64,000 nucleotides of DNA. Origin: Raillietiella orientalis (lineage: Eukaryota). Numbering within the stretch: position 1 is the stretch's first letter; every line of letters begins with the position of its first letter. Location: positions 248,001 through 312,000 of the forward strand of contig JAYWIR010000081.1 of the NCBI GenBank assembly GCA_036172245.1. The letters are read 5' to 3'. Under the pieces are notes generated by a model. The model ran no database searches. It saw nothing but the letters and a program-made list of their open reading frames with translations, and was not told the origin of the DNA. The position numbers were made by a program, and so were the translations under genes. Of the stretch, positions 5,946 to 52,316 are shown in pieces.

Positions 5946-6333
5946 GAGGTTTACTTGAAAAAATAAACGTCTTCACGAACCGAATTTAAATGAAGGCTCT
6001 GGAGAGTGACGCCTCTCATTGATTCGAGAAGGTGTTTCTTCGCACCTAAGAGTCGCGTCCAGTCCCCCGGCGGACGCCACACCCTGCATGGCGGTACCTT
6101 GTCGCGAGGAGGTATCTCGAAAATTAGCCGGGAATGGTCCGACACCGTCGACGCAACCTTCCCCCGTTTACCGACCCGCGAACACGGGTCGGCGTCGAGA
6201 AACGCGTGGTCGATGCTGAGGACTATTCCCCTCTCACCCGCGAACAAGTTGCGCGCACGCATAACGGCGCACAACTCGTTCATCGAGTCCTATTCTGTTT
6301 CTGGCTCACCTGTTAGCAGGCGGAGATTGAAAT

Positions 6334-15680: not shown

Positions 15681-16530
15681 AATTTTCACCCGGATTTCTC
15701 CGGGTCGTTCATTAAAAAATAAACTTTATGTTGAAAGTATTTATGGCTGTGGAATAGCTCCAGCCAGTAGCGAAGAACCACGAAGCTTGCCAATTCACCG
15801 GTCTCTGGATAGGCACAGTCCACCAAGGCATCAGGGGGAAGGGGAAAAACAAAAAAACTAAACAAAAAGAAACAAAGGGTGATAGGGAACGGGAAGGGAT
15901 CACTGATGCTGCTGAGGCCGCATCATCCCTCTCAGAATGCAGGCAAGCTCTTGTTTGTTGTGAACATCCAGGTGGGGCCATCGCGACGCCCTCCTCAGGA
16001 ATTCGGAGGCGCACTGGATGGCTTCCTGATCGCGACGTCCTCCCGTCGCCGTACTCCAGGCGGCGACGATCCAACGAAGGCAGAAAAAGGCTGCTATCGA
16101 GGACGCAGGCCGCAGAGCGTCGGCAGCGAAGAAGACTTTTAGTGCGTCCCTGGGGTTGCTGCAAGGGATACCGATGGCCGCGGCAAATCGGAACCAAAGG
16201 GGCCGAAGGGCAACACAATCCACTAGGAGGTAGGGGAGGGATTCCCGTTCCCCGCACCTTACACAATTGGGATCCACCGCTCCCCAGGTCCAGTGGTGGC
16301 GATGGGAGTCGCAGGGACTCCCCTATGCTGCAACAGGAATGCCGACTCTAGCCATTTTAAGGGAAGAGTGAAAGTGTTCATAAGAACCGGAGGCCACTTC
16401 CGATGTTGAATCGGAACATCGAGCAGCGCTCTCCAGCGCAGAAGTCCATTGGGAGGCGAATTCGGGGGCGCAGCATGAGTTAGCTGACCCGTCTTCCACT
16501 CTCTCTGCTTCTTCTCCTTCCCGGAGATTT
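15681..16530 (-). mobile_element. 3' fragment of a Tx1-type element (possibly family F) with complete 3' UTR and terminal hairpin
   Basis: LPLKWLESAFLL...CVRCGERESLPYLLVDC, stop at 15900, terminal CCCGGA-GAAA-TCCGGG (15689-15704). Confidence 0.85.
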
Positions 16531-16534
16531 TTAT

Positions 16535-19155: not shown

Positions 19156-19371
19156 GGGATTCGGCGTTGCCACCCGGGTACGCCCGGGGCGTTTATTGAT
19201 AAACTTTACATGCGTGGTACAAGGCCCCACCACGGCCGTAAACACAGGACCTGTCGGGACACCGGGACGCAGCCCGGCGTGGCACTCCCCGACAGCGAAG
19301 GGGGATGGGGATGAGACAAAAAGTAAAATAAAAAGAAACAAACAAAAAGAAGTTGGAGGGCAGGGAAGGGA

Positions 19372-24720: not shown

Positions 24721-24815
24721 CGGACACCAACGATGTTCCACACCAAACAGCACAAGAAAAAACCGCTTCCTGTCGACTCACTCGGGAGCGAAGGAAACAC
24801 ACGTCCACTCGCCAA

Positions 24816-27800
24816 GGGATTCGGCGGAGGGCTGAGGAACGACCGGGCATACCAGCACGCTCATCTTTACCCTAGGACTCATGACGTTCGACGCCTGGCG
24901 GAGTATACAGCTGGGGCTGAGCGACAGACCTGGCGATCCGGGTCGGCCAGCTTGCTGGACTTCCAAGGCCAGGAATGCTCAGCTCCGGCGAAAATAAACC
25001 GCATCCTGCAAGAGTATTACTCCTCCTCGTACGCGGGTAGAACAACAGAGCGCGCCGTTGCGTAGCGCTTGCTGCTGCAAGGCGCCTTCGCGCTACAGGA
25101 GGAGCAGAAGCATGAACTTGAGGAGCCATTCCCGATGGCGGTGATCATCTCCGCCATCGGAAAGCTCAGAAAGAGGAAAGCACCAGAAGAACACGGTCTG
25201 CCCGCGGAGATCTATCGAGGCTTCGTGGCAAAGCCGGCCTTCTTAATGCATCGGCTTTGCATGCTGATCCGAGAACAAGGGGACGTCCCCAAATCGTTCC
25301 GGTCAGCTAGAGTACGTCTCCTGCAGAAAAACGGAGACAATCGCAACGTAGGCAACTGGCGTCGCATTACAGTAGTGAATGCGGATGCGAAATTGCTTGC
25401 CAAGATTTTAGCTGAGCGACTCGGACGTGTGGCGGAATCCGTGGTGAGACCGAAGCCGACATACGCTGTTTCCGGACGAAGCATGGAAGGCAACCTGTTC
25501 CTTGCCAGTACATGTTGGCAGTTGCAACAAAGCGAAGACCAGGGAGATCATGAGAATCCTGAATTCTGCTCTGACCAGGGAGGGTTCGCCATTCATGGAA
25601 GAGCCGCGCCCGGTGCCCTTGCGGTCGCAGTCCATCTGCGCAAAGGTTCGATTGCGTCGAAAAGCAACTCCTTGTGGAGCTCCAGAAACGCTCGGGATTT
25701 CCGGCCATCTTCCGGGATTACCTGCGCTCCTGCTGGCGCTTCGCTCTAATAAACATCTCTTCTAGGGCCGGCACGTGTACGCCCTGCCGGTTCGGCGTGG
25801 CATAAGGCAGGCTGACAGTCTGAACCCCTTGCTCTTGAGCATCTACTTAGAGCTGGTGTTGAGGGCACACAAGCAGACTTTTGCAACCCTGCCAGGCTCG
25901 TGTCCCGGCACGCCTGCCGTGTCGGCCTACGCCGACGACCTTCTGCTCCTGCTCCCCGGGTCCACCACGGAGTCGGCGCTCGAAGATTTCTTTGAGTTGC
26001 TGCGCCGCGGGACGGGCCTCGAGGTGAACAGAGAGAAATCCACAATCGTTCCTACATCACCACTGCTTTGTGAATACACGGCGTGGGCCGGAAGGTCGGA
26101 CTCGAATCGCTTGGGGATCCCCACGGGCCGGTGCTTCAAGTACCTCGGCGTTCCGTTTGGGGACTTCTGCGTTGCAGAAGCCTGGTCCGACCATCTCCAA
26201 AAGGTGGAGTTGGCGTTCGGCCGGTTCCAGAACTGCAAGTTTTACTTGCAGGAACGGGCCGCGGTGTGGAACGTGTTCGCGGCCCCCCTCCTTCGCCCCT
26301 TACTTTTTGTTTGCTTCGCTCCTCTCTTCATACAGAGACGGACCAAAGCCCACTTGAGGGCTGCCATTTCGAACACAGCGTGGTCGCGAGACCGATTGAA
26401 ACACTTGTGCGCTCCACGCAGGGATGGTGGCTTGGGCCTTCTTACGTTGGAGCGCATCCAACTTCAAACACGAATTCGAAAGTTAGCCCTTGCGGCTAGC
26501 TTATGGATGACGCCATTGTGGGATCCGGCACGGCTCCTCGCCAGAAGAGCGACCGGCTGCGAAGGATTGTCCTTGATCTTCGTGGCCTACCAGCGCAGTC
26601 TCTCCAACTGTGGCACTTATTCGCGCCAAATTGTGGCACTTATTCGCGCCAAATGGTCGCCCTGATGTGGGAGAATACCTGGATCTCCTGCCTTCCCGCG
26701 AACTGCACTGCCTGGCTTCAGGAGTCAGCATCCGCGTGGGCGAAGATGAACAGCACGAGCAAGGCGGAATGCAACTGCCTACGACGAGGAACTTACGTTC
26801 GACAGCCGCTGCAGGATATTATCAACACGCCCCGGAAGTTTCTGTGGGCTTCTTTCAACCCCCTTGCTCCCGTTCTGTCCTCCCTAAAAAGCACTAGGAG
26901 CAGCAACCAGCGGGCATAGTGGGAAGTGTCCTGCCTAATCCGAGGCAGGAAAAAACCTTTAAAGGCGTGAACGACTGGGGAGCTAACGGACGCTGCCATT
27001 CCGAGCGTCCCGCCTCACGGACTTGCGCGCTGAAGAGAGCTGCTCGCAATACCTCCGGAGGAGGTGAAGTGGTCCCCAGCGTTTTGGGATTGCGGCACAC
27101 TTCCGTTGAAGTGGCAGGAGACGGCGTTGCTATTTCTGCACTGGAGACTGTGAAGCAGAGCACGCCTTTCTTAATGGACACTGTGGAATGTGGATGCTCG
27201 CTCTGTGGAGTGCGGTGAAAGAGAAACCTTCCCGCATCTCACCCTCGAGTGTGTCGTCCTGGATGGACTCTGGATTCGAATCGCCCCAATCCTTCATCTT
27301 CCAGTAGGCGACCATAAGGACATTTATCGTCGCCTCTTTCTGCGTGACGGTCTGCGCTCCGCTGCGTCTCAAGCAGTCCTCTGCTGCGTGCGCGGGATTG
27401 CGCAAAGGTGGCACGCAAGAAGAAGAGGCTCAAGATGCATGGACGCCATCCAATGGACGGCGATGTCTTTAGAGACGGCGACAAGGTGGCGTGTACCTTT
27501 CACAATAAAAACCGAACTTGACTGCATCCTCAACAGGATGCGAAGGAACGAACCAGGTGCACAGTGATCCCTTTTCTACCCTCCACCTCCCCATAGAACA
27601 GTTTCTCTCCCCGTTATTCTCTTTTTTGTTTTTTGTTTTCCCTTTCCTCTTTCCCAGCGCCTGGGTAGGGAACCTCGCCGGTCTGGAGACTGAGTAGCGA
27701 GTACATTGTAGCGTGGGACAACTCAGTGTTGCTCCACAGAAAACATTTTTTAAAGTCTTTATGATCTAATTTTTGTAACAAATTAGAATAATAAATGCCC

Positions 27801-27819
27801 CGGCATATCCGTGTGACAA
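24816..27819 (+). mobile_element. Element X (possibly family C): decayed ORF2 from the GFG linker to the 3' end; host of the family A array
   Basis: GFGGGLRNDRAY..., YADD, KYLG, CGERETFPHL; stop 27567; terminal AATAAATGCCCCGGCATATCCG; 23-bp tandem duplication at 26609-26654 causes a frameshift. Confidence 0.9.
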
Positions 27820-27831
27820 ACGGCGGAGGCA

Positions 27832-28450
27832 ATTGTTGTGCGCTCCGTGGATAGGAAGTTATTGGTTTGGTGTTTCGTGTGTTTGTCGCGGCCGTTGACA
27901 GGCAGAAATGCCTGTGAATTCCGCAGATTTAGGTAAGGGAGGCGGGAAGACCGTGTCTCCCAAGCCAAAGGAGGTGGGATCACGCCCCACCACTACTTCT
28001 GAACCTTACCTTGCCACTACGGAAAGGGTTTTAAGCGCGGTGGTAGCAGCGAAAACGCCCAATGTCGCCGCCGAAATACAATCCTACATCCAAAAGGGCT
28101 ACAATCCGGCCCTCCTGTACAAGGTAGGAAATTTATATTCCCCGTTGAAGGCGCGAAAGTTCGGCAATGCCATCAAAAAGATGGGCATTGCCGACCATGA
28201 AATTCTTTGCCTGTCAATACAAAGCGGAGGGTAGTTGGCGGAACTCAACTGCAAGGATGCAGCTCTCACCCACAAACTGCTCTGCACGCCCGTACAATTT
28301 GAGGGCAGGAATTTACTTTCCCACACGGTGGACCACTCCATTGTGGTTCACCTTCTCGGGACAACAGTTCGGATGGATGAGAACGCCATCCGCGCTGAGC
28401 TTGAAAAATTCGCAAGGGTTTTCGCAATGTGGCGAAAGCCCAACACCTTC
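27832..28450 (+). mobile_element. Family C copy 2, 5' part of ORF1, interrupted by antisense element G
   Basis: MPVNSADLG... closely similar to 34356 onward; breaks after WRKPNTF. Confidence 0.9.
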
Positions 28451-30356
28451 AAAGTAATTTCCACCCGGGTAATCCCGGGAAGTTTATTAAAAAAACATTC
28501 CACAAACGTGGTATTAGGCCCCACTAACGGCCACACAACACCGGACCTGCCGAGACGCAGGGACGCAGGACGACGTGGCTCTCCTCGGCAGTGGAAGGGA
28601 TGGGGGAGAAAACAAAAAGAAAAATAAAAAGTAAGGAAAACAAAATGAAGTTGAAGGGCTGGGAAGGGATTACTTTGCACTGGAAGGAGGTCCCATCCTT
28701 CGAAGGAAGCCCTTTAAGTCCATCCGAATTGTGCCCAGCTGGGGCCATTCAGAAGCTCTCGTCAGGAAGGGAACAGCATACCTGATGACGTCGCTGTCGT
28801 TCTGGTACACATCTTCGTCGCGTGTATCACTCCACGCCGCCACGATGCCACGGATGCAGCATAATGCTGCCAAGGCTGCGACTGGCTGCAGGGCGTCCCG
28901 CACAAAGAGGAGGCGGAAAACGTTCCTGGGCGCTCTCCCCGTAGGGAGCCCTAGGATCGTCCTAAACCGTCCCACAGGGGTCGAAGAACAGCACCGTCAA
29001 CAAGAAGGTGGGGGAGCGATTCCCTCTCCACACACCGTGCACAATCAGGATTTACTCACCCCCAGGTCCCTCGTCCAACAATATCCCTCGTCCTGAGTTA
29101 CGGTAGGAGACTTGCCACTTCGGCGTGCGGCCGCTGGTAAGAGTTCTATACAGAAAGGGCAGCGCCGTAGCTAAAGGGTTGGTCTCCTCCCACGTGCTTC
29201 TGGCGGGACACTGCAAAGTGGACAGCAGAGTGCAGCAGGCGTTACTGCCGAATCGCAGGCGGTTCCAGTTTTCCTCTCTGGTGTTGTTCAACTTTGCACA
29301 CGTTCCAACGGTTTCCTTCAACCAGGCGGAAGAATTGGCGGGGCTGCATACTATCCAACCTTTCTCTCTTACCAGGGCTTCCATACGTCCGAGAAAGAGG
29401 CCGCATCTTCTAACCTTCCGGCCGCGGCACACAAGATGGGACGCGAGCCCTTGCGTATCGGAAACACGGCTGGCAACGAGGCCAGAACGCACCAAGGGGT
29501 GTTCCACAACTTCGCTGAGATAGCCAAAGTGCGCCATCGCAGCTGGATCTCCAAGCGCTCTAGCGTCAGAAGGCCGAGACCACCGTCCGGACGAGGAGCG
29601 TTTATGTCTTTCAAGTTAAATCGGAGTCTTCCGCTGCCCCAATGGGCAATACGGAGGACCTCCTTGGTCCGTTTTTTCGACAGGGTAGGGACTGGGCAAA
29701 CAAAAAGTAGAAGGCGTAGGATGGGGGCCGCGTATGCGTTCCAAACCGCGGCCCCTTCCGGCAGAAGGAACTTGCCTTCCAGGAACAGGCCGATCGCGAG
29801 CTCTAACTTTAGGAGACGACCAGACCAGTCATCTGCTAAGCAGAAGTCCCCCAACATGACACCCAGGTACTTCAGGCACCTGGCCGTGGGGATCTACAAG
29901 CGGTTCCAGTCAAGCCGTCCGACCCACGTCGCACCAACCGCTACTATCGATGACTTCGCCTTGTTAACACGCAGTCCAGACCCGCGGCTTAGCAGATCGA
30001 AGAAATCCTCGACTGCGGCTGCCGTGGTGGACATGGGCAACATCAGCAGAAGATCGTCGGCGTATGCTGCAACAGCGGCCGTGCCGGGGCAAGAGCTCGG
30101 TAAGGCGGCCAAAGTCACCCTGTACGCTCTCAGCACGAACACAAAGTAGGTGCTAAAGAACAGGGGACTGAGGCTTTCGCCCTGCCGTATGCCCCGCCGC
30201 ACCGGCACGCCGTACGCTGCGATTCCCCTGTAATGAACATTAATCAGCGCGCAGCGCCAGCATGAGCGCAGGTAGGAGAGAACAGACGGTGGGAAGCCCA
30301 TGAGACCCAATAGCTGCAGCATAAGATCCTGGTCTACGCAGTCGAACGCCCTATGC
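28451..30356 (-). mobile_element. Element G (A-related): RT motif HRAFD to the 3' end; interrupted by element F
   Basis: AFDCVDQDL, RQGESLSP, YADD; 3' UTR similar to family A; terminal AATAAA + CCCGGG-ATTA-CCCGGG (28464-28479). Confidence 0.9.
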
Positions 30357-31545: not shown

Positions 31546-34277
31546 TTTATTACCCGGTTGTGCCGGGACGTTTATTAAAATATCAACTAAGAACTGTGTT
31601 CCCAGGCAAGGGGAACAGAAAATGGGGAGTGGATTTCCCGGAACGCAGTCCGGGCACACGGAGAGTTCGGAACGGGAGGGGGTGGGACAATAAATAAATA
31701 GACTGGGTGGGAGGGCGGGGACAGGGGTATACAGTCTAACCGTTCCTATTCTCAGAACCGGCGGTGAATGCCAACGATCTCCGTCCTCAATTCTGCTCCA
31801 AGATGTGGCCACCCGGCAGCCATTTGCAGGTTGCAGGCTGTGGTGTCGGGGACCGATGTTCGGACTGCTCGCATCTGCAATACGTGGCGGGCCCTGACAA
31901 TGGCGCGGACGCAGCAGATGATTGCGACGACCGCTCCAAGAGAAAGTTCGCCACGCGTGTAGAAGCGGCGCATCCAATCCAGTGCGGTGTGTCCAGGGTG
32001 CAGGAGCGCTGAAGACAGCCGCTGCCGCAGCTCCTGAAGGGCACCGCACTCAAACAGCAAATGCGGAAGCGAATCCACCGCTCCGCATTAGGCACAGTTC
32101 GGGGACGCAACTACCCCGGAAATCAGGTGCGCCCGCTGGTTGCAGTACAAACCCCAATGCACCAGCAGAAAAGCGTCCTGCTTCCACCGAAGGGGGAAGA
32201 GAGTCGCGTCCAAACACACAGAAGGGACCACAAGTTCATCGGTGGGCACCCCGAGGAGCTCACTCCACCGGAGAAGCCCCTTTGCAAGAATGCGAGGTGT
32301 GGCAGCGTCTGCCACTTCGCAAGTCCGCCAGCCGCCCAGCAGTCGTTTTTCGCCTGCCATTTCGCAAGTGATCTCCCACTTCGCCGGCAGGTCACTGTCA
32401 TCTCGCACCATCAGTATACACAGTGCTTCGGCGAGTGGCGTAGCGGCTAGGCGTGTCCACTGGTCCTGGTCTTCCAGCACCTCCCCATACTGTCCAGTGG
32501 GGAGGTGCTGGAAGTTTCACGCAACGGAGTTCCAAACGGGACACATCCTGTTGCGCTGCCCAGGACGATAAGGCTTCCTGCCTCCAGGCGTTGAAGTTTG
32601 TCGGCCGGCAGGAGATCCACTCATGCTTCAACAGAAGCGTGGAGAGCTGCTTCAAAGGGAAGCCGAATCCTCTCTGGGCGCGCTCCGTGCGCAGATGCAA
32701 CGAACGTAGTCCGTCGCCACCCGTGCTGCGCGGCAGCAGCAGCCGCGCTGGAGCACACCGGGGAGTAGTCCAGAGCTGCGCACAAAGTGCCAGCATGCGG
32801 AACTGCACTAGCAGTCGGATCCGCTCCAGCGTCAGGATGCCCAATCCTGCATCCCGCCGAGGAGCCGCCAAGTCCTTCAGGCGTATCCTGGACCTCGGCG
32901 GTCCCCACAGGGCGTTACGCAACAGGCGTTACGCCCGGCTCTTAGCCGAGTTGGTAGGGGGACAAACAAAAAAGAGGAAACGGAGCAGGGGGGCATCCAA
33001 AATGTTCCTCACGAAAGCCCGTTCCGACAGGAGAAACCTGCAGCCTTTGAACGAACCCAGAGCAGTCTCGGCCTTGTGAAGGCAGTCCGACCACGCTTCT
33101 GCTGGACAGAAGGCGCCCAAGGGAACGCCAAGGTACTTCAAGCACCTGCCCGTGGGGATCCTCAGTCGGATCCATTCGGACTGCCCCTCCCACGTAGAGC
33201 TAACCGGTACAACGATTGATTTCGTCCTGTTTACGCTCAGGCCCGCTCCCCGACGAATGAGCTCGAAGAAGTCCTCGAGCCTGGACGCCGGGGAGGACAT
33301 GGGCAGCAGCAGGAGAAGGTCGTCAGCAGAGGCGGCCACGGCCGCTGTTCCCGGGCAGGAGCTCGGCAGGTTGGCCAGCGTCAGCCTGTACGCCCTCAGC
33401 TCCAACTCAAAGAAGATGCTGAAGAGCAGGGGGCTTAAGCTGTCTCCCTGCCTGATACCCCACCGTATGGGAAAACCGTACACGTGACGGCCTCTGAAAG
33501 AGATACAGCATAACGGGTGGCGCCAGCCGGAGCGCAAGAAGGCGATGAGGTTCGTCGGGAGGCCAAGGCGTCCCATAAGCTCCAGAAAAAGGTGCTGGTT
33601 TACGCTGTCGAACGCTTTAGAGAGATCGACGGCGACCGCTAAGGCTCCCGGCGTTTTATTGTGCCTTGAACACCGCCGCTTTCTTTTGGCTGCAGCGATT
33701 TTGGCTGCCTGGCTCTGCTGCGCCAGGCGCTGCTGCAACTCGAACCATGTTCGCGCGAGGAAAAGATTCGCGTCCATGGACCGCCCCGGAACTGCATACG
33801 TCTGCTCCGGACTCACCAAGGACTTTGCGATTCTCCCCGAGCGCGCGACCGATAGCCTGGGGAACAACTTGACGTCCGAATTCACCAATGTGATCGGAAG
33901 CCAGTTGCTGAGGTGGCGCAAATCACCGCCTTTCGGCAGGAGCCGCACCTTTGCTGAGCGGAAAGAAGCGGGAACATCTCCCGTCTCACGCATCCGCGAG
34001 GAAAGGCTTAGCACCAGGGGGACGAGCTCCGCCGCGAAGCATCGTAAGAACTCCGCGGGCAGGTCATCCTCGCCAGGCGCCTTACGCCTCTTCAGGCCCG
34101 CTATGGCAGAAGATACTTCTTCCGCCGTGAAGGTCCAATCCAATCTGGTGCGTTCCTCCTCGTCGATAGCAGGGTTTCCCGTCGGAAGAAGCAGCTCGGA
34201 GAGACTGAGTTCCGTGGGCTTCTCCGATGTACAAGGCGGAGTAGTAGCGCTTGACTACGCGGTGCACGGCGGACGCA
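31546..34277 (-). mobile_element. Element H (B-related): ORF2 from the linker to the 3' end; interrupted by family C
   Basis: ORF 32929-34143 with DLSKAFD, RQGDSLSP, SADD, KYLG; terminal AATAAA + CCCGG-CACAA-CCGGG (31553-31567). Confidence 0.9.
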
Positions 34278-35489
34278 CTTGTTGCGCGCTCCTTGGATAG
34301 GGAGTTTTTCTTTCCTGGTGTTCCGTGTGTGTTTCGCGGCCGTTGACAGGCAGAAATGCCTGTGAACGCCGCAGTTTCAGGTGAGGGAGGCGGGAAGACC
34401 GCGTCTCAAAAGCCAAAGGAGGTGGGATCACGCCCCACCACTTCTTCTGAACCCGCCACTACGGCGAGGGCCTGGAGCGCGGTGGCAGCGGCGGAAACGC
34501 CCGATGTCGCCGCCGAAATTCAATCCTACATCCAGGAGGGCTACAATCCGGCCCTCCTGTACAAGGTAGGCAATTTATATTCCCCGTTAAGGGCGAGAAA
34601 GTTCGGCAATGCCATCAAAAAGATGGGCATTGCCGACCATGAAATTCTTTGCCTCTCTATACGGAGCGGAGGGCAGTTGGCGGAGCTCATCTGCAAGGAT
34701 GCAGCTCTTACCCACAAGATGCTCTGCACGCCCGTACAATTTGAGGGCAGGAATTTACTCCCACACACGCTGGACCACTCCACTGTGGTCCACCTAACAG
34801 GGACAACAGTGCGGATGGATGAGAACGCCATCCGCGTGGAACTGGAAAAATACGCAAGCGTTTTCGCGATGTGGAGAAAGTCCAACACTTTCGGAGTGAA
34901 TGGTGCATTTAGTGGGCGAGTAGGCGCGCGCGTGACGCTTCGAGAAAAAGTACAGCTTCCCCACAAGCTCCAAATTGGCGACGAGTTCGTCGACATTTGG
35001 TTTGCGGGGAAACCTAAATTTTGTGGAAACTGTAAGTCGTTCGGGCATTTGAAAAAACGGTGCCCGGACGCGGTTTGCCCAACGTGCGGCGCGAAGGGCC
35101 ACACCAAAGTGGTGTGCCCGATGAACGTCGCTCCAACGCCGGAACTTCCGCAAAAGAAGGCAGGGAAGGCAAAAATAGTAATAAACCCCACAAAAGGGGA
35201 TCAACCGTCGGCTCCGACAAAAGTCGCGCAGCAGGAAAGGGACTCGGTAAAGGAGCTCCCGGAAAAGACTGCCGACGAGGAAGGCTGGCAGCTGGTCACC
35301 CGTAAAGTAAAAATCGTTAAAAAAACCGCGCCCGCACCGGCGAAAGTGGTGAAGGGCAAGGGGAAGGTCGCGCCATACCCAACAATCAAAGCGTGCAGCG
35401 TGGCCATCAAACGCGTGCCGGCGATCGATACTCGCTCCGCTGACGGATCGATGCGTTGTGACGTCACGCCAGCTGTTCAACCCGCCGCC
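34278..35489 (+). mobile_element. Family C copy 1: 5' UTR and open ORF1 (from 34356), truncated by the family D array
   Basis: CGNCKSFGHLKKRC and CPTCGAKGHTKVVC; frame ends at VQPAA where the D 5' end begins. Confidence 0.92.
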
Positions 35490-35580
35490 TGAGAGGGTGG
35501 ACGAGCTTTTGTGGTGCTCCGCGTTTTTCTCGCGAGTGTTTTCGGTGTTTTCAGCTGTGAGCGGTTGTTCCTGGGCAGAG

Positions 35581-37247
35581 ATGCCCGAGGACGCCGCAAA
35601 GACGGCGGAGGGGGGCGAGCGAGCCTCGTCCCCCCAGCCCATGGATGTGGGGGCCATCTCCCCCACGGAATCGTCCCCCGCCCCGGCGAGGGCTTGGAGC
35701 GCGGTGGGGGCGGCGCCTGCGCCGCCCCCCGCAGAGGAACAGCGGGCCTATATGGCCGACGGCTACAACCCGGCCCTACTTTACAAGGTAGGTGGCCTGT
35801 ACTCCCCCGCGGTGTTACGATCGTTCGCCGCGGAGTTTAAAAAGTTGAAAGTCCCGGAGGACGAAGTCCTCGGGCTTTCGGTTAGGAGTGGCGGGCAGCT
35901 GGTTGAGCTGAACTGCAAATCTGCAGGGATGGCTCAGCAGCTGCTCCGCCTGCCGGTGACCGTGAACGGGCGAAGGATCTTCCCGTTCACGGCGGACAAC
36001 TCCATCGTGGTGCATTTGACCGGCATAACGATGCGCATGGCAAAGAGCGCCGTGCGAGAATCGTTAGAGAAGTTCGGGACCGTTCACGCGTTGTGGGCAA
36101 AACCCAATGTCCTGGGTTACACCAGGGCAGTTAGTGGTTACGCCGCTGCGCGTGTGACGGTACGTGCCGAGGGTGGGCTACCCCACAGACTGCAGGTCGG
36201 GGAGGAGGAGATCGACCTGTGGTATGTGGGGAAACCCGTATACTGCGGCTTTTGCCAGGTGTCGGGGCATTTAAAAAAGAAATGCCCCAACATCGTGTGC
36301 TTGGGCTGTGGGGAGAAGGGGCACATCAGGCGGATGTGCCCCAACCGAAAAGGTCCGTTCCGTCAGGCGCGAGGAAGGAAGAGACGCCGAAGGAAAAGGA
36401 CCGAAGCCAACAACTGGCAGAATCCCGCCCTGCCGACCAACCCGCTACTCAGGCATCCACCAGCGAACAACCAGCTGGAGAAAGCGCCGAGAACGAGGAA
36501 GGTTGGCAAAAGGTAGAACGGAAGAAGCCCCAGAAGAAGGAGGCAAAAAAGATAAACAAGGCGGCGCCGAAAAAGCAGAAACCGGTCGTCCGCGCTTGTA
36601 CGGTGAAGATCGAACGCGTCTCGATCGCCAGAGCCGTAAAGAAAGTAACGGTAAAGGCGATCGATACCGTCGATCCTGAGCCGGTCGTGCCCGCAGTGAC
36701 GTCACCATCAGCTGACGACAATGCCGTTCCGGCATTGCCAGCGAAGGACGTCTGCGCGCCGATCGATGAAGCCGCCCCTGTCGCGCCTGCGCAAAGCGTC
36801 GGTGCGGAAAGCGAGGAGGCGGCGCGCATAACGGACGCGACCTTCGCGCAGGCCGCGGAAGAGCTGGCAGCCATGTTACGGCAGCCTGCCAAGGCCGAGA
36901 AGAAGGCCATGAGACGACCGGCAACGGTGAAGGGCCCGGAAAATTCCGAGTCCGAAACCGAAGCCGGTTGTTCTACTTCCGCAGCCGTGCCGAAGAGGAA
37001 GGCTGGCAAGAAGACCGGTTGCCCGAGACGGGTCGCCCCTCCGCAGGTGGAGGAGGCCATGTCCTCGGGCACGGAGGAGGAGGCAATGTGCGTCGCGCCA
37101 CGCGACCCCTCCCCGATCCGTGTCTCGGAAGCCAGCCCCATGGAAGTCGCTGTGGACGACGTGCTCCCGTGTGAGCAGCCGACCGTCGTCACGGCCGCCA
37201 ACAAGCCGCCTCCCGCAAGGGAGGAGGCCGCCTCCACCCCACAATAA
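35581..37247 (+). pseudogene. ORF1 of family D, with a one-base frameshift in an A-run near 36348
   Basis: CGFCQVSGHLKKKC and CLGCGEKGHIRRMC. CCGAAAAGG here versus CGAAAAAGG in copy 2 (41941), which stays in frame. Confidence 0.85.
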
Positions 37248-37255
37248 ACGCATCA

Positions 37256-40200
37256 GTGCGTGGGCTCGCCTTCTGCCGCCGCTTGCGCATCACCTGTTGG
37301 AATGTCAACGGGTTGCGCGACGGCGGAAAGAGGCGAGATGTAGCCGCCATACTGCGAGACTTCGACCTGGTGCTCCTGCAAGAGACGCACGTTCTCCGAC
37401 CGGGAGATGTCCAGGAAATCGAAAGAATCGCGGGGGGGCGGCTACTGTGGAGGAACGGAACGGACAACTCCTGCGGAGTGGCCTTTCTGCTAAAGCCAAC
37501 CGTCGACAACTCACTGCGCAGTGCACGGTTCGACGGGGATGGTCGAGTTGGGCAGCTTGTGTTCAAGTGGTCCGACTCGATCGACCTCGTAGTCACGAAC
37601 CTGTACGCTCCGGTGAGCAGTCACAGGGCCGAGGAACGCACTGCGTTCTTCGAAACCTTGCGGCGAGACTGGTTGGCCGAAGCAGGCGTGCGAAGGGCGC
37701 ACCTCATTGCGGGCGATTTCAATCTCCGCCTGCTGGCAGGTGCGCCCAGCGGACGAGCACAGCTGGTCAACGAATTGTGCGCAGCCATGCATGCGCGCAA
37801 CTTGTTGGCCGGCGATGCCGGGAGAGATCGGAACATCGACCACATGTTCCTCGACAACCACCTGTGCACGCGGGTGGGAACTCGAGGAACGCTCCCGGCA
37901 GAGCTGTCCGACCATCCACGGCTCGTGCTCGAGTTACATCCGCGCAATAAGGGCCCTCCCCTGAAAACATGGCACCTGCCAGGGGATTGGTTGCGCCTCG
38001 CAGGAGCGGCGGAACATCTACGCTGTTTCCTGCGAGGATTCCAGCTTCAGACGCTCGCGGACTGGGACGAAATGAAGTGCTCAGTCCGTGAGTTTTGCGA
38101 CCAGTTTCCGCTGGAACGTCTTCCGCCGGGCTTCGGTGAGGGTGTCAGGAACGAGCGGGCGTACCTCCAGGCGCGCCGTTATTCCCGGCGTCCCGACGTC
38201 CGTCGCCTGGCTGAATTCAAGGCTGAGGCGGAGAGGCAGGCCTGGCAGTCAGGCTCGGCCTGCCTGCTGGATCATCAGGGCCAAGAACGCTCCAGCCCAG
38301 CCCTGGTAAGCCGCATCGTGCGGGAGTTTTATTCCTCCTTGTACGCGCCACTGACACCTGAGCGCCATTTCGCGCAGCGCCTGCTGCCGGATGGCGCTCC
38401 CGCGCTCAAGGAGGAGGACCGTTCCAGATTGGCGGAACCGTTCACGATGGCGGAGATCATCTCCGCCATCAACAGGCTAAAGAGAAGGAAGGCACCAGGG
38501 GAGGACGGCCTGCCCGCGGAGTTTTACCATCGCTTCGCGCCAGAGCTGGCCCCCCTGGTGCTCAGGTTAAGTGCGCTGATCCGCGAACACGGCGAAGTTC
38601 CCGCCTCGTTCCGGTCAGCTAAATTACGTCTCCTGCCGAAGTCAGGAGACTTACGCAACATTGGCAACTGGCGTCCCATCACAGTAGTGAATGCGGACGC
38701 AAAGTTGTATGCCAAGTTGTGGGCTGAGCGTTTGGGGCGGGTGCCCGCTTCCGTGGTGAGTCCCGAGCAGACCTATGCTGTTCCCGGACGAACCATGGAG
38801 GCCAACCTGCTCCTCGCCAGCTCATGGTGGCAGTTGCGACAACGCGTTGCACACGACGGTCAAGGGAGCCTCGCGCCCTTCTCTGACCAAGAAGATCGGG
38901 CAGAGGGTGGGATGGATTCGGCGGGAGCCTTTGCCGTCGCGGTCGATTTGCACAAAGCATTCGACTGCGTCGACCAGGATCTCCTTCTGGAGCTCCTGGA
39001 ACGCATGGGTTTCCCTGCCGTGCTCCAGTCCTACCTGCGCTGCTGCTGGCGCAACGCGTCAATAAATATTGGTTTTAGCGGCCGGCACGTGTACGGTGTG
39101 CCAGTGCGCCGCGGCATCCGGCAGGGTGACAGCCTGAGCCCCTTGCTCTTCAGCATCTACTTCGAGTTGGTGCTGAGGGCATATAGGGTAACTCTGGCAA
39201 CCCTGCCGAGCTCGTGTGCCGGCACGCCTGCCGTGTCGGCCTATGCAGACGATCTTCTGCTGCTGCTTCCCGGGTCCACCCCGGCGAGTGCACTCGAGGA
39301 CTTCTTCGAGTTGCTGCGCCGCGGGACGGGCCTGGAGGTGAACAGGGCGAAGTCGTCCATGGTCTTCGTCGGTTCGGCGTGGGCTGGACAGTCGGACTGG
39401 ATCCGCTTGGGGATCCCCACGGGCAGGTGCTTCAAGTACCTCGGCGTACCGTTGGGGGACTTCTGCGCAGCAGAAGCCTGGTCCGACCGTCTCCAAAAGG
39501 CAGCGTTGGCGATCGGTCCGTTCCAAGAAGGCAAGTTCTACTTGCAGGAACGGGCCGCGGTGTGGAACGCGTTTGCGGCTCCCCTCCTTCGCCCCCTACT
39601 TTTTGTTTGCCCCGCCCCTTATTTTATTCGAAAACGAGCAGCGGGCCTCCTGAGGACAGTCCTTTGGGGCAAAGGGAGGTCCCGTGTGAGGCTCAAAGAC
39701 TTGTGCGCTCCACGTAAGGACGGTGGACTTGGCTTACTTACGCTGGAGCGCATCGAAATACAACTTCGATTCAGGACTCTCGCCCTTGCGGCAGAATTGT
39801 GGGACACGCCTTGGTGCGTTCCAGCACGCCTCCTGGCCCAACAAGCCTGCGGAATCGGCGGACTTTTGTCGTTTCTGTCTGCGCGCGTCTGCAGAAGACC
39901 ATACTGTGGCTCTATGCTGCGACGCATCTTTGTTGCGGTTCGGGAGAACGCCTGGATCTCCTGCCTCCCAGGGAACTACTCCGCCTGGTTGCACGAGTCA
40001 GTCTCCACCTGGGTAAAGACCCACGTTCCGGCGGGCACAAGGAACACTTGTATGAAAAGGCACGCCCGCTGGACGCTGCAGGAGATCGTGCAGTCCCACG
40101 ACAAGCTTCTGTGGGCCTTGATAACCCCCCTCTCCCCAGTGCTGCCCTTCCTTGTGAATGCCAGGGACAGTAGCGAGCAGGGGAAATGGACCGTGTCCTG

Positions 40201-40813
40201 CACTATAGGCGGCAGGACACAATCGATAAAGGCGTGGACATCTCGGCAGCTAGCTGACGCTGCGACGCCGAGTGTCCCGCCCAACGGAATTCGACGCTGG
40301 GGCGAGCTACTCGGACTATCTCCGGAGGAGATGAAGTGGCCCCCAGCGTCCTGGAACCGTGCATCCCTCCCCCTGAAATGGCAGGATGTGGCGTTGCTTG
40401 TGGTCCTCTGGGGACTTCCATTCAAAGCACGCCTTCATCACACAACCCGGGGGGCTGTGGATCCTTATTGTGGCCGGTGCGGGGAAAAAGAGACCTTCCC
40501 CCACCTTCTCATCGAGTGCAGTGCCATCCGCCCTTTATGGGATCGTCTCGCGGCGATCCTGGACTTGCGCGGATTCGGCCCAAAGGACGTTTTCATGCGC
40601 CTCTTCTGTAGTGACGCCTTCTCCCCGCCCGCTAGTGTAGCAGTCCTCTGCTGCATCAGAGGAATAGTGGCGGCTTGGAACGCCACCAGAAGAAGGCGTC
40701 AGCCAACCGGCAACGCCTTACACTGGACTCGCGTTTTCGCGCGAAGTGTCTGCAAGTGGCGCCACTTGGGCGCTGAAAGGACGAAGCTTGTGCGGATCCT
40801 GAATAGGATCTAG
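37256..40813 (+). CDS. Intact ORF2 polyprotein, 1185 aa: APE endonuclease + reverse transcriptase + CCHC zinc finger
   Basis: WNVNG, LQETH, NLYAP, GDFN, IDH, SDH; APGEDG, NWRPI, DLHKAFD, RQGDSLSP, YADD, KYLG; CGRCGEKETFPHLLIEC. Confidence 0.96.
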   Translation: MRGLAFCRRLRITCWNVNGLRDGGKRRDVAAILRDFDLVLLQETHVLRPGDVQEIERIAGGRLLWRNGTDNSCGVAFLLKPTVDNSLRSARFDGDGRVGQLVFKWSDSIDLVVTNLYAPVSSHRAEERTAFFETLRRDWLAEAGVRRAHLIAGDFNLRLLAGAPSGRAQLVNELCAAMHARNLLAGDAGRDRNIDHMFLDNHLCTRVGTRGTLPAELSDHPRLVLELHPRNKGPPLKTWHLPGDWLRLAGAAEHLRCFLRGFQLQTLADWDEMKCSVREFCDQFPLERLPPGFGEGVRNERAYLQARRYSRRPDVRRLAEFKAEAERQAWQSGSACLLDHQGQERSSPALVSRIVREFYSSLYAPLTPERHFAQRLLPDGAPALKEEDRSRLAEPFTMAEIISAINRLKRRKAPGEDGLPAEFYHRFAPELAPLVLRLSALIREHGEVPASFRSAKLRLLPKSGDLRNIGNWRPITVVNADAKLYAKLWAERLGRVPASVVSPEQTYAVPGRTMEANLLLASSWWQLRQRVAHDGQGSLAPFSDQEDRAEGGMDSAGAFAVAVDLHKAFDCVDQDLLLELLERMGFPAVLQSYLRCCWRNASINIGFSGRHVYGVPVRRGIRQGDSLSPLLFSIYFELVLRAYRVTLATLPSSCAGTPAVSAYADDLLLLLPGSTPASALEDFFELLRRGTGLEVNRAKSSMVFVGSAWAGQSDWIRLGIPTGRCFKYLGVPLGDFCAAEAWSDRLQKAALAIGPFQEGKFYLQERAAVWNAFAAPLLRPLLFVCPAPYFIRKRAAGLLRTVLWGKGRSRVRLKDLCAPRKDGGLGLLTLERIEIQLRFRTLALAAELWDTPWCVPARLLAQQACGIGGLLSFLSARVCRRPYCGSMLRRIFVAVRENAWISCLPGNYSAWLHESVSTWVKTHVPAGTRNTCMKRHARWTLQEIVQSHDKLLWALITPLSPVLPFLVNARDSSEQGKWTVSCTIGGRTQSIKAWTSRQLADAATPSVPPNGIRRWGELLGLSPEEMKWPPASWNRASLPLKWQDVALLVVLWGLPFKARLHHTTRGAVDPYCGRCGEKETFPHLLIECSAIRPLWDRLAAILDLRGFGPKDVFMRLFCSDAFSPPASVAVLCCIRGIVAAWNATRRRRQPTGNALHWTRVFARSVCKWRHLGAERTKLVRILNRI

Positions 40814-41042
40814 AGGACCTCTCCACGCGCACCGTGATCCCTTCCCCGCCCTCCCATCCCTACAACATTTGTTCCCCCCCCCACATTTGAACTTTTTGTT
40901 TCTTTTTGTTTTTCTTTATTTCCCATCCCCGCGCATCGGAAGGACCTCTCCGGCACGGAGCCGGTAACCAGCAAGCTGTTATGGAGTGGTGAACCTTCGG
41001 GTTCGCCACGCGACATTTCTTCTGTTATTTTATTTTTTATGA

Positions 41043-41067
41043 AATAAATGCCCCGGCACATCCGGGT
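41043..41067 (+). terminator. Conserved element 3' terminus: AATAAA + CCCGG-N5-CCGGG hairpin (representative of nine instances)
   Basis: AATAAATGCCCCGGCACATCCGGGT; homologues near 6340, 15689, 19173, 27799, 28464, 31553, 47906 and 52284. Confidence 0.75.
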
Positions 41068-41093
41068 GTGAACAACCCGCCGCCTGAGAGGGT

Positions 41094-41100
41094 GGACGTG
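41094..41100 (+). promoter_or_regulatory. Conserved 5' motif (G/A)GACGTG, DPE-like internal promoter element (representative)
   Basis: Near the 5' ends of A (19140-19146, 24800-24806, minus), B (11503-11509 minus, 54342), D (41094, 52326), E (42300) and F (30367). Confidence 0.5.
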
Positions 41101-45200: not shown

Positions 45201-47926
45201 CGGGAGTTTTATTCCTCCTTATACGCGCCATTAACACCCGAGGGCCAATTCGCGCAGCAGTTGCTGCCGGATGGGGCTCTCGCGATCGGGGAGGAAGTTT
45301 GTTCCAGGTTGTCGGAACCATTTACGGTGGCAGAGATTGTCTCCGCCATCAGTAAATTGAAGACAAAGGACGGCCTGCCCGCGGAGTTTTACAAACACTT
45401 CGCGACAGAGCTGGCTCCCCTGGTGCTCAAGCTAAGTACGCTGATCCGCGAACACGGCGAAGTTCCCGCCTCGTTCCGATCAGCAAAAGTACGTCTCCTG
45501 CCGAAGTCAGGAGACCTACGCAAATTTAGCAACTGGCGTCTCATCACAGTGGTGAATGCGGACGCAAAGTTGTATGCCAAATTGTGGGTTGAGCGTTTAG
45601 GACCGGTGGCGGATTCCGTGATCAGCCCGGAGCAAACATACGCTGTTCCCGGGCGAACCATGGAAGCCAACCTGCTCCTCGCCAGCACATGGTGGCAGTT
45701 GCAACAGCGCTTTGCACAGGACGGTCAAGGGAGCCTTGAGCACCCCTCTGACCAGAGAGACCCGGTAGAGGGTGGGGCGGAATCGGCGGGAGCCTTCGCC
45801 ATCGCTGTCGACTTGCGCAAAGCATTCGACTGCGTCGACCAGGATCTCCTTCTGGAGCTCCTGGAACGAATGGGTTTCCCGTCCGTGCTCCAGTCCTACC
45901 TGCGCTCCTGCTGGCGCGACGCGTTGATTAACATTGTTTTCAGCGGCCGGCACGTGTATGGCGTGCCAGTGCGCCGCGGCATCCGGCAGGATGACAGCCT
46001 GAGCCCCTTGCTCTCCAGCATCTACTTTGAGTTAGTGCTGAGGGCATACAGGGTAACTCTGGCAACCCTGCCGAGCTCGTGTCCCGGCACGCCTGCTGTG
46101 TCGGCCTATGCAGACGATCTTCTGCTGCTGCTTCCCGGGTGCACCCCGGCGAGTGCACTCGAGGACTTCTTCGAGTTGCTGCGCCGCGGGACGGGCCTGG
46201 AGGTGAACAGGGCGAAGTCGTCCATAACTTGTACCTGCTCGGCGTGGGCTGGACGGTCGGACTGGATCCGCTTGGGGATCCCCACGGGCAGGTGCTTTAA
46301 GTACCTTGGTGTTCCGTTGGGGGAATTCTGCGTGACAGAAGCCTGGTCCGACCGTCTACAAAAGGCATCGTTGGCGATCGGTGCGTTTCACGAAGGCAAG
46401 TTTTACTTGCAGGAACGGGCCGCAGTGTGGAACGCGTTTGCGGCCCCCCTTCTACGCCCTTTACTTTTTGTGTGCGCCGCTTCTTATTTCGTCAGGAAAA
46501 GAGCAGCGGGCCTCCTACGGACAGTCCTTTGGGGCAAAGGGAGGTCCCGTGTGCGTCTTAAAGACTTGTGCGCTCCACGTAAAGACGGTGGACTTGGCCT
46601 ACTTACGCTGGAGCGCATGGAAGTACAATTTCAGTTTAGGACTCTCGCCCTTGCGGCGGAATTGTGGGACACGCCTTGGTGCGGTCCAGCACGACTTCTG
46701 GCCCAGCGAGCCTCAGGATATAGCGGACTTTCTTCGTTTCTCTGGGCGCGCGACCGCTGACAAGCACACTCCGGCTTTCATCTGCGGCGCATGGCCGTTG
46801 TGGTTCGGAAGAACACCTGGATCTCCTGCGTCCCAGGGAACTACTCGGCATGGTTGCACGAGACAGTCTCCACTTGGGAAAAGCTTCACTTTCCGGCGGG
46901 CACAAGAAACACTTGCCTGAAAAGGCACGCCCGCTGGACGCTACAGGAGATCGTGCAGTCCCACGATCAGCTTCTGTGGGCCCTGATAACCCCGCTTGCT
47001 CCTGTGCTGCCCTTCCTACAAAACGCTAGAGACAACAGGGAGCAGGGGAAATGGACCGTATCCTGCACCATCAAAAGTAGGACACAAAAGATTAAGGCGT
47101 GGACATCTCGGCAGCTAGCGGACGCTGCGACGCCGAGTGTCCCGCCCAACGGAATCCGACGCTGGGGAGAGCTACTCGGACTATCTCCGGAGGAGATGAA
47201 GTGGCCCCCAGCGTCTTGGAATAGTGACTCTCTCCCCCTGAAATGGCAAAAGGTGGCGCTGCTCGTGATACATTGGGGTTTACCCTTCAAGGCACGCCTC
47301 TCTCACTCCACTCGGGGGGCTGTGGATTCCCACTGCGACCGGTGTGGGGAGAAAGAGACATTCCCCCACCTCCTTATTGAGTGCATTGCTCTCCGCCCTC
47401 TCTGGGATCGTCTTGGAGCAATCCTGGACATTCGCGGAGGCGGCCCTAAAGGTGTTTTTAGGCGACTCTTCTTGCGTGATGCCTTGTCCCCTCCCGCTTC
47501 TGTGGCAGTTCTTTGCTGCATTAGAGGGATCGTGTCGGCTTGGAACGCGACAAGAAGAAGGCGCCAAGCTTGCGGCAATGCTGTACACTGGACTCGCCTT
47601 TTTGTGAGAAACATTTGCAGGTGGAGACACCTGGGTGCACAACGGACGCAGCTTGTGAAGATCCTGAACAGGATCTAGAGGACCTTTAAGCGTGCAATGT
47701 GATTCCCTTCCCGCCCTCCCTTCCCAAACATAAGTACTCCCTCCAACTTTTACATTTTTTTGTTTGTTTCGTTTTTTTCTTCCCGTTCCCGCGCGTTGGA
47801 AGGACCTCGCCGGTTTAGAACCGGCAAGAAGCAGGCTGCTTTGTGCTGAACCATCAGGTTCTTCACCCGAAAATTACATGTATTTTAATTTTTTTAGATA
47901 AATGCCCCGGCATATCCGGGTAAAAA
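42298..47926 (+). mobile_element. Family E full-length Tx1-type element nested in D ORF1
   Basis: Direct repeat CGCAGTGACG at 42288-42297 and 47927-47936; the empty site (CCCGCAGTGACGTCACC) is visible in D copy 1 near 36692; ORF2 44136-47678 with stops. Confidence 0.96.
42382..44127 (+). CDS. ORF1 protein of family E (two CCHC zinc knuckles)
   Basis: Open frame MPEDTANAEK...; CGNCETTGHLKRRC and CLRCGNKGHVRKVC. Confidence 0.9.
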   Translation: MPEDTANAEKGDGRALSPQPMDVGAISPTDSSPAPARSWSAVVAAPAPPPCEEQRAYESHGYNPALLYKVGGLYSPAMLRTFAAEFKKLKVPEEEVLGLSVRSGGQLVELNCKTAGMTQQLLRCPVTVNGRRIFPFTADKSIVIHLTGLTMRMAKNAVRQELEKYGTVHALWAKPNTLGYTRAFSGYAAARVTVREDSGLPHRLQVDEEYIDLWYIGKPKFCGNCETTGHLKRRCPNIVCLRCGNKGHVRKVCPLRFASTPVGNKRTESPQEPDKQDPQSSETSQTGEISTPVEQKPEEGETVAENSWQLVKKKESKKKGKAPKKTVKMVAKTVRRSTVHIDRVPAKASTSKPSIDTAPAASIDRAVPASCGEIATVAIDSAAHVAAIEIVVPVQSTGSVVAASESSAAAVPNDSAPVAAIESVVTSPDSPTGGEIRDDVERISDANFAQAAEELAAFRRQPVKAEKKAVRRPATAKDPETSEFDAESGNSPSVGLPKRKHKNATGARKRAVTSQEEVEMPSDSEEESMCVAQCDFVPESILYQLLTQSTADGVSDAPEHSNDMDPDHPSSEQEAVSSTPP

Positions 47927-50900: not shown

Positions 50901-52316
50901 GGGGCAAAAAGAGGTCCCGTGTGAGGCTCAGAGACTTGTTCGCTCCACGTAAGGACGGTGGACTTGGCGTACTTACGCTGGAGCGCATGAAACTACAACT
51001 TAGATTCAGGACACTCGCCCATGCGGCGGATTTCTGGGACACGCCTTGGTGCGTTCCAGCACGCCTCCTGGCCCAACGAGCCTGCGGATTCGACGGACTT
51101 TTGTCGTTTCTGTCTGCGCGCGTCTGCAGAAGACCATACTGTGGCTCTATGCTGCGACGCATCTTCGTTGCGGTTCGGGAGAACGCCTGGATCTCCTGCC
51201 TCCCAGGGCACTACTCCGCCTGGTTGCACGAGTCAGTTTCCACCTGGGAAAAGATCCACGTTCCGGCGGGCACAAGGAACACTTGTATGAAAAGGCACGC
51301 CCGCTGGTTGCTGCAGGAGATCGTGCAGTCCCACGACAAGCTTCTGTGGGCCTTGATAACCCCCTTCGCCCCAGTGCTGCCCTTCCTTGTGTATGCCAGG
51401 GACAGTAGCGAGCAGGGGAAATGGACCGTTTCCTGCACTATAGGCGGCAGGACACAATCGATAAAGGCGTGGACATCTCGGCAGCTAGCTGAGGCTGCGA
51501 CGCCGAGTGTCCCGCCCAACGAAATTCTACGCTAAGGCGAGCTACTCTTACTATCTCCGGAGGAGATGAAGTGGCCCCCAGCGTCCTGGAACAGTGCATC
51601 CCTCCCCCTGAAATGGCAGGATGTGGCGTTGGTTGTGGTCCTCTGGGGACTTCCATTCAAAGCACGCCTTCATCACACAACCCGGGGGGCTGTGGATCTT
51701 TATTGTGACCGGTGCGGGGAAAAAGAGACCTTCCATCACCTTCTCATCGAGTGCAGTGCCATCCGCCCTTTGTGGGATCGTCTCGCGTCGATCCTGGACT
51801 TGCGCGGATGCGGCCCAAAGGACGTTTTCAGGCGCCTCTTCTGTAGTGACGCCTTGTCCCCGCCCGCTAGTGTAGCAGTCCTCTGCTGCATCAGAGGAAT
51901 AGTGGCGGCTTGGAACGCCACCAGAAGAAGGCGTCAGCCAACCGGCAACGCCTTACACTGGACTCGCGTTTTCGCGCGAAGTGTCTGCAAGTGGCGCCAC
52001 TTGGGCGCTGAAAGGACTCAGCTTGAGCGGATCCTGAATCGGATCTAGAGGACCTCTCCACGCGCACCGTGATCCCTTCCCCGCCCTCCCACCCCTACAA
52101 CATTTGTTCCCCCCCACATTTGAACTTTTTGTTTCTTTTTGTTTTTCTTTATTTCCCATCCCCGCGCATCGGAAGGACCTCTCCGGCACGGAGCCGGTAA
52201 CCAGCAAGCTGTTTTGGAGTGGTGAACCTTCGGGTTCGCCACGTGACATTTTTTCTGTTATTTTATTTTTAAGAAATAAATGCCCCGGCACATCCGGGTG
52301 TGAACAACCCGCCGCC

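Follow-up and report, generated by a model that had tools for sequence, protein, structure and literature searches.

The L1-like LINEs nested in the 64-kb stretch of DNA analysed here (the window) end in a common 3'-terminal module of 30–31 nt, made up of a poly(A)-signal-like hexamer, 3 nt, a GC hairpin of 5–6 bp with a loop of 4–5 nt, and 6 nt ending in AA, after which target DNA begins directly. We suggest that the module may represent the conserved 3' end signal of a tail-less, site-specific group of L1-like LINEs, and that it is probably best read as a stringent-type start signal for target-primed reverse transcription. The principle is already known, L1 included; what is new is the form (hexamer, N3, invariant stem, 6 nt, no A tail), the animal-type, L1-like, site-specific setting, and the fact that many co-resident families have it in constant form.

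A nest of L1-like LINEs

Self-comparison together with tblastn shows at least eight LINE families nested in the window, on both strands, which we label A, B, C, E, F, G, e and H2 (H2 denoting a 5'-truncated element), plus an old fragment, a; G+C is about 52–64% to roughly 58 kb and 41–46% thereafter. The long ORFs have the layout of L1-clade ORF2, with an N-terminal AP-type endonuclease, a reverse transcriptase (RT) and a C-terminal zinc-binding region, all recognized by Pfam (on ORF2, Exo_endo_phos at 1.2e-14 and RVT_1 at 1e-22; in the ORF2 of A-I, zf-RVT at 1.7e-4, a value under its curated cut-off), and the ORF1s upstream carry CCHC knuckles (Pfam zf-CCHC). ORF2 identity to A, from tblastn, is 83% for B, 34–69% for C, E, F, G and e, and about 40% for H2.

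Among solved structures, human L1 ORF2p matches the intact ORF2 best, at E 5.5e-46, while the best R2-type entry reaches 2.6e-15; the L1 affinity is judged on this comparison. The nearest relative in a large protein collection is 25% identical, and the C-terminal 363 aa give a poor predicted structure (mean pLDDT 51.7). G and C/C' have each entered the same short sequence more than once, with target duplication, a trait of the Tx1 group; the likeness to that group rests on this insertion habit, the search matches including no named Tx1 sequence.

The 3' module

Ten ORF2 C-termini were located in the window by tblastn with the intact ORF2. Eight are followed, 200–350 nt downstream, by the strict form hexamer-N3-CCCGG-N5/6-CCGGG-T[G/A]NNAA; one (e) has a stem with a single mismatch and one (a) has no hairpin (Table 1). 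In A-I the module lies 232 nt beyond the ORF2 stop (40811-40813); a probable target copy of 13 nt separates it from the next A element. Element a is the one exception among the ends: AATAAACGT is present, the hairpin is absent, and the covariance model described below misses it at E up to 10.

Table 1. Coordinates of the 3' ends, of element A-I and of the 5' ends carrying the [G/A]GACGTG motif (CM, covariance model)
Feature	Positions	Strand	Sequence or description	CM score (bits)
A-I 3' module	41043..41072	+	AATAAA TGC CCCGG-CACAT-CCGGG TGTGAA	43.3
A-II 3' module	52275..52304	+	identical to A-I module	42.4
B 3' module	47897..47926	+	GATAAA TGC CCCGG-CATAT-CCGGG TAAAAA	46.8
e 3' module	27790..27819	+	one stem substitution, 3' arm CCGTG (G-to-T)	44
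C 3' module	19167..19197	-	AATAAA CGC CCCGGG-CGTA-CCCGGG TGGCAA	
E 3' module	28458..28488	-	AATAAA CTT CCCGGG-ATTA-CCCGGG TGGAAA	
F 3' module	31547..31576	-	AATAAA CGT CCCGG-CACAA-CCGGG TAATAA	48
G 3' module	6334..6363	-	AATTAA CGC CCCGG-CGTGA-CCGGG TGATAA	
H2 3' module	15683..15713	-	AATGAA CGA CCCGGA-GAAA-TCCGGG TGAAAA	
Old element a, 3' end	5962..5992	+	AATAAA CGT, without CCCGG hairpin; end mapped within ~3 nt against host C2	
Element A-I	35478..41072	+	intact 1212-aa ORF2 at 37175-40813	
5' ends with [G/A]GACGTG	35491-35520, 42307-42330, 34266-34295, 30360-30385	+		
5' ends with [G/A]GACGTG	24790-24811, 11490-11515	-		

The full pattern [A/G]AT[A/T/G]AA-N3-CCCGG-N5-6-CCGGGT occurs eight times in the window and in none of 300 dinucleotide shuffles. 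The bare hairpin, CCCGG-N3-9-CCGGG, has nine matches where 1.26 are expected (at most five in 100 shuffles), and all are terminal modules except the match at 31637-31654, which is internal to the 3' UTR of element F. Moreover, a covariance model was derived from the eight distinct modules; applied to the 64 kb with filters off, it recovers exactly the nine ends, at 40.4–48 bits, with the runner-up at 14.6 bits (E 1.1). The nine ends counted in the first-pass annotation, and the loops listed for them, are correct.

The geometry of the module is nearly fixed. The gap between hexamer and stem, which had been put at 2–4 nt, is 3 nt in 9/9 ends, and the distance from the hexamer to the terminus is 24–25 nt in every one; the hexamer is AATAAA in 6/9 and a one-letter variant in the other 3/9. 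The arms are 5 nt apart in A, B, e, F and G and 6 nt apart in C, E and H2, and all three of the 6-nt spacers form a sixth pair (G-C, G-C and A-T), leaving a four-letter loop. The stem is followed in all nine ends by six letters, T[G/A]NNAA; the few, often A-rich bases of the earlier description are indeed short, but with an exact length of 6 nt. A poly(A) tail is found at none of the nine ends, the longest A run being 5 (element B), in agreement with the earlier statement that long tails are missing.

With filters off, the covariance model detected no orphan module in the 64-kb window, and no non-autonomous or SINE partner with the same tail, so that recognition in trans is without a witness there. 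Curated Rfam families, such as the histone 3' stem-loop and the UnaL2 3' element, gave no match in the window at the gathering score, and the stretch 40780-41100 gave chance-level Rfam matches only (E 2.8–6.5). A search of the open-access literature by description of the module, as distinct from its motif letters, returned no account of it. In practical terms, the module can be used as a precise 3' boundary marker for annotating and untangling nested islands of this kind.

Element termini at insertion junctions

At every unambiguous junction the terminus lies 6 nt beyond the stem, and target DNA directly adjoins it. In particular, G sits in the GDFN codons of the C-type host C2, where a 9-bp target duplication, ATTTCAATC, and the empty site at 16836-16844 set its terminus from both sides, and the B terminus is set by a 10-bp target duplication, CGCAGTGACG, in A-II, which with the empty site in A-I fixes it from both sides. 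In C, A-I and A-II, the tail is followed by a short sequence that, in another context, also precedes a 5' end, and this comparison places the terminus at stem plus 6; for C, the tail with its 15-nt target copy is compared with the flank followed by the same 15 nt at 24812-24826. The boundary of e also falls at 6 nt, where its tail meets the 5' start of D2, a start that recurs after a different flank at 34266. The tail of H2 measures 4–6 nt, the final AA being possibly shared with the target (KAFD codons of a + strand RT), and that of E measures 5–6 nt, the junction (host D2 ORF1 region, compared with D) being ambiguous by one nucleotide, an A. The F terminus is placed by its module, as no host homologue was found for an independent mapping.

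The first letters of the targets vary (ATTTC, CGCAG, CGCCG, CAACC and TTGAA), which argues that priming is independent of annealing to the target beyond 0–2 nt. In agreement, complementarity between tail and target follows no consistent pattern across the mapped junctions.

Conservation, folding and layout of the 3' UTRs

The nine 3' UTRs were aligned with MAFFT, and identity means were taken over the eight hairpin-bearing elements, with a left out. The last 32 columns are the best-conserved stretch of the alignment, with a mean pairwise identity of 0.76 against 0.37 elsewhere, in a sample of eight independent sequences from a single 64-kb nest. Stem letters agree at 273 of 280 pairwise positions (5' arm 140/140, 1.00; 3' arm 133/140, 0.95) and the hexamer reaches 0.88, whereas the spacer stands at 0.54, the loop at 0.53 (36/68) and tail positions 2–4 at 0.38. 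Since the elements are homologous, chance is the wrong null for this conservation. The stem, however, has stayed constant while the letters beside it drifted, in families that are deeply diverged, which rules out a recent exchange of the whole module and argues for selection. This pattern indicates that the stem, the hexamer and the terminal AA have been kept by purifying selection, and the proposal that a kept stem with a variable loop reflects selection is borne out to that extent.

Whether selection acts on an RNA helix is a separate matter. The hairpin is predicted to form in RNA: pairing is seen in 38/40 cells, the misses being the e mutation and an alignment-register artefact in H2, and the hairpin lies within the minimum-energy fold of the full 3' UTR in 7/9 copies, the two others being the stem-mutated e, from whose predicted fold it is missing, and C, whose arms pair elsewhere in the global fold. 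Covariation is zero, as no pair has changed on both sides and the five core pairs vary in none of the elements; with the core pairs invariant, covariation speaks neither for nor against an RNA helix, and the shuffle control is uninformative. The sixth pair, formed in all six-letter spacers with two pair types, is the only hint of RNA structure, and an invariant inverted repeat would be equally suited to a sequence-specific DNA reader. The selected RNA structure of the first-pass annotation is thus upheld as regards selection on the stem and finds no covariation support as regards the helix, and the covariance-model check that it proposed for the 3' ends recovered all nine while showing zero covariation over invariant core pairs.

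The 3' UTRs, earlier taken to be otherwise dissimilar, have boxes and a common layout in spite of their low identity outside the last 32 columns. A GTGATCCCTTCCC-type box stands directly after the ORF2 stop in most families, and further shared features are a T-rich tract, a C-rich box and, ahead of the hexamer, a box of the AGTTTAT type. A second GC hairpin, with the loop CTGCGT, is present in the UTRs of C, E, F and G some 80–130 nt before the terminus (in F, this is the internal match noted above, on the - strand). We also considered an AU helix between GTTTAT and the hexamer and rejected it: the 40 nt before the stem fold no better than shuffles (z -1.44 to +1.19) and, while the boxes recur, single changes in them are uncompensated.

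Tandem pairs and target sites

Four tails directly precede a 5' end (A-I|A-II, A-II|A-III, C|C' and e|D2). R2 proteins are able to jump serially between templates in vitro, according to part of a published account (PMC11371274). Serial template jumping was rejected as the origin of the same-family head-to-tail pairs here, as what looked like the first 15 nt of C is antisense of host KGFG codons. These 15 nt between C and C' (19152-19166; 24812-24826, - strand) are homologous to PPGFGEG of A-I and, being host sequence, mark C and C' as two insertions at one target; G, too, was inserted twice, at GDFN codons. Those 5' ends that are validated by target duplication or host homology begin 2–6 nt before a [G/A]GACGTG motif, whereas in the A elements 21 nt precede it, and the first 13 nt of A are therefore best read as target. 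The first 13 nt of A-I (35478-35490) are thus probably a target copy, and we infer the same for all the 13-nt A spacers (35478-35490, 41073-41085 and 52305-52317, + strand). Taken together, this indicates that the same-family tandems reflect repeated insertion at one site and not template jumping, a reading that leaves the 3' boundary unchanged. At the fourth junction the tail of e is followed at once by the D2 5' start, ACGGCGGA... (27814-27835, + strand), with room for a spacer of a few nucleotides at most.

Relatives outside the genome

Metagenome contigs scanned with an alignment of the window ORF2s yielded 80 loci, which are 22–42% identical in the best-matching segment (at most 29% for the ten best loci). 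The module was found in none of the 80, either by regular expression or by the covariance model at default filters. The best family (L001–L005, 29% ORF2 identity) has no A tail and ends about 150–190 nt after the ORF2 stop and about 18–21 nt past AATAAA, at three different flanks, with an AGTTTAT...AATAAAC inverted repeat; in a further locus, L009, AATAAA is followed some 20 nt later by 17 A. Considering that these relatives keep an AATAAA near the end but not the module, we regard the hexamer as widespread and the GC hairpin as lineage-specific, and the designation of the terminus as universal does not hold.

Comparison with known systems

In the L2 clade, UnaL2 of eel and ZfL2-1 and ZfL2-2 of zebrafish carry a 3'-terminal stem-loop that is bound by the cognate ORF2 protein and is essential for retrotransposition, and in ZfL2 recognition is general for the stem and specific for the loop, as set out in part of the source (PMC4176376). 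The elements described here likewise have a short conserved stem-loop at the extreme 3' end, with a constant stem and a family-specific loop. They differ in clade, their ORF2 being nearest human L1 ORF2p, and in the AATAAA exactly 3 nt before the stem, and where UnaL2 has terminal TGTAA repeats, as described in a portion of another source (PMC3747384), they have a fixed 6-nt tail instead. Binding by ORF2p, and the requirement for the stem-loop, were shown in UnaL2 and ZfL2 and are predicted here.

Stringent lineages with a conserved 3' hairpin have also been published within the L1 clade, namely the monocot group around LINE1-1_ZM and L1-1_CR of Chlamydomonas (Ohshima; PMC3747384, in the part that deals with them), so that recognition of a 3' stem-loop is not foreign to this clade. 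According to the same portion of that source, the last ~45–80 nt of these elements are, as here, far better conserved and form a hairpin. The monocot group nevertheless varies its stem letters with compensation and conserves the loop and a flanking CGAG, the reverse of what we find; nearly all flowering-plant L1-clade LINEs, and L1-1_CR, end in poly(A) repeats, whereas the elements here are without them; and SINE partners are known for the stringent plant and algal L1 lineages, whereas none is present in this window (PMC3747384, same portion).

For human L1, the relevant part of a recent account (PMC10830416) reports that a C-terminal segment of ORF2p engages a stem-loop of the template and helps to set the start of synthesis, and that an unpaired stem-loop leads to heterogeneous start sites. 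ORF2 of the present elements is homologous to this protein, as judged by the match given above (E 5.5e-46). Human ORF2p, however, requires poly(A), of which it reads some 15 nt in single-stranded form between the stem and the active site (PMC10830416, same part), whereas here only 6 nt lie past the stem and no A tail is copied. In view of the stringent L1-clade lineages and of the stem-loop binding by human ORF2p, the contrast drawn by the first-pass annotation between poly(A)-dependent L1-group elements and those recognized by a 3' stem-loop was overstated. The choice of template by L1-type enzymes remains a matter of active interest: human L1 needs poly(A) yet grips a stem-loop, and the nest described here keeps a hairpin-defined, tail-less terminus across families only 34–69% identical in ORF2.

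Finally, the elements are like the site-specific, tandem-forming LINEs (R1 type; Tx1 group) in their fixed short targets, their target duplications and their tandems separated by target copies, and unlike them in that the targets are coding motifs of sister LINEs.

Proposed function and alternatives

We favour the reading that the module probably tells target-primed reverse transcription where to start, in the manner of stringent-type LINEs. The hairpin in the RNA would be gripped by the element's own ORF2 protein, this grip would set the RT active site a fixed 6 nt downstream of the stem, and cDNA synthesis would begin at the same nucleotide regardless of the target sequence, with no poly(A) copied. 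A fixed terminus marked by a hairpin fits a signal for RT recognition or start-site choice, and to this degree the earlier suggestion of an RT recognition or priming signal is sustained; that ORF2p binds the hairpin and sets the start site is what we infer. Should the RNA be polyadenylated, the enzyme would have to start at the boundary of the tail, and the terminal AA could be the first letters of that tail. A bolder form of the proposal, which we put forward as speculation and consider doubtful, is that poly(A) has been wholly abandoned, that the invariant GC stem is a common handle for a conserved ORF2p surface from which the RT start lies 6 nt on by protein measurement alone, and that the drifting loop serves as a family code. 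If this bolder form holds, LINE families that use one another's coding motifs as insertion targets would make up a guild with a single initiation signal that they have in common, or contend for, and the nest would offer a natural system for asking how an L1-type enzyme picks its template without poly(A). A shared hairpin might permit cross-mobilisation among the families, as the first-pass annotation proposed; by analogy with ZfL2, the variable loops could equally keep the families apart. The start signal as such would place a stringent mode inside the L1 group in animals.

The hexamer brings in an alternative, namely that the module forms the 3' end of the RNA: the hexamer would direct polyadenylation, the hairpin would set or protect the cleavage site 24–25 nt downstream, and the terminal AA would mark the point of cleavage or be the start of the A tail, so that element and RNA would have one and the same end. 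In animal poly(A) sites the hexamer stands 10–30 nt before the end, a range that takes in the distance seen at all nine termini, and the hexamer here is not only well kept (identity 0.88; AATAAA or, in three ends, a one-letter variant) but also has counterparts near the end in two unrelated relatives (L009 and L001–L005). In Hebe of Adineta, poly(A) begins 11 bp after AATAAA, as stated in part of the source (PMC2861651). Against this, reverse transcription from the end of a polyadenylated RNA would be expected to leave A tails, which none of the nine ends has, and a poly(A) signal needs no strict 3-nt gap between hexamer and stem; sense AATAAA/ATTAAA within the elements is not depleted either (two in A-I, three in e, one in F, with similar counts of the complementary hexamers), in a test of little power. 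We consider this role unlikely, and note that it may coexist with the start signal that we favour.

Considering that the stem is invariant and does not covary, and that CCCGG...CCGGG is a palindrome in DNA, the inverted repeat might instead work as DNA, the palindrome being used by the endonuclease, in second-strand synthesis or by a host protein; it could, for example, be a landing mark, as three of the 3' ends (A-I|A-II, A-II|A-III and C|C') are followed by a copy of the same family. These tandems are nonetheless explained by the target copies between the elements, the target sites of G and B have no hairpin, a spacer of 5 or 6 nt in which the longer form adds a pair suits a hairpin over a dimer site, and the module is always found on the sense strand at the 3' end, all of which makes a role as DNA very improbable. 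The protein that recognizes the hairpin need not be ORF2p, as CCHC knuckles bind small stem-loops and the ORF1 of these elements carries such knuckles (Pfam zf-CCHC); a packaging or chaperone site for this zinc-knuckle protein would, however, need no fixed distance of 6 nt from the terminus, and we hold it to be improbable. We attach the least weight of all to the notion that the module has no present function and is common by descent only. The nine ends are homologous and their UTRs have other boxes in common, but descent by itself sits poorly with a stem kept at 0.95–1.00 when its neighbours within the module are at 0.38–0.54 and the remaining UTR is at 0.37.

5' ends and further observations

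All full-length 5' ends start 2–8 nt before the shared [G/A]GACGTG, which is followed by a T-rich run and GCTCC. The motif may be an internal promoter or start signal; we take it to resemble the downstream promoter element of insect LINEs, but it lies much nearer the 5' end.

Three e-type RT fragments (13945, 14853 and 24808, + strand; tblastn) begin at about ORF2 residue 316–321, near GFG codons. A C-type 5' end adjoins the fragment at 13945 and at 24808, which suggests that the GFG codons are a recurrent target; at 14853 the reading frame runs on upstream of the GFG-equivalent codons, so that this fragment is uninterrupted there. At 16525-16540 (- strand), a copy of the first 2.6 kb of C (94% identical to C) breaks off at ORF2 residue 283. 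What follows, without change of orientation, starts at residue 1009 of an unrelated family with the H2 module at its end; the join is a chimera, a deletion or a nested event.

DNA contigs aligned to 28000-47999 yielded no usable information on element ends. Among them, a 485-nt contig from DNA run X1 covers 41045-41529, the junction of an A 3' end with an A 5' start, with 18 differences and no gaps. As it matches neither junction of the window exactly, further A tandems are probably present in the genome. The lower-GC right end of the window contains a tandem repeat with a 51/102-bp unit (62004-62323).
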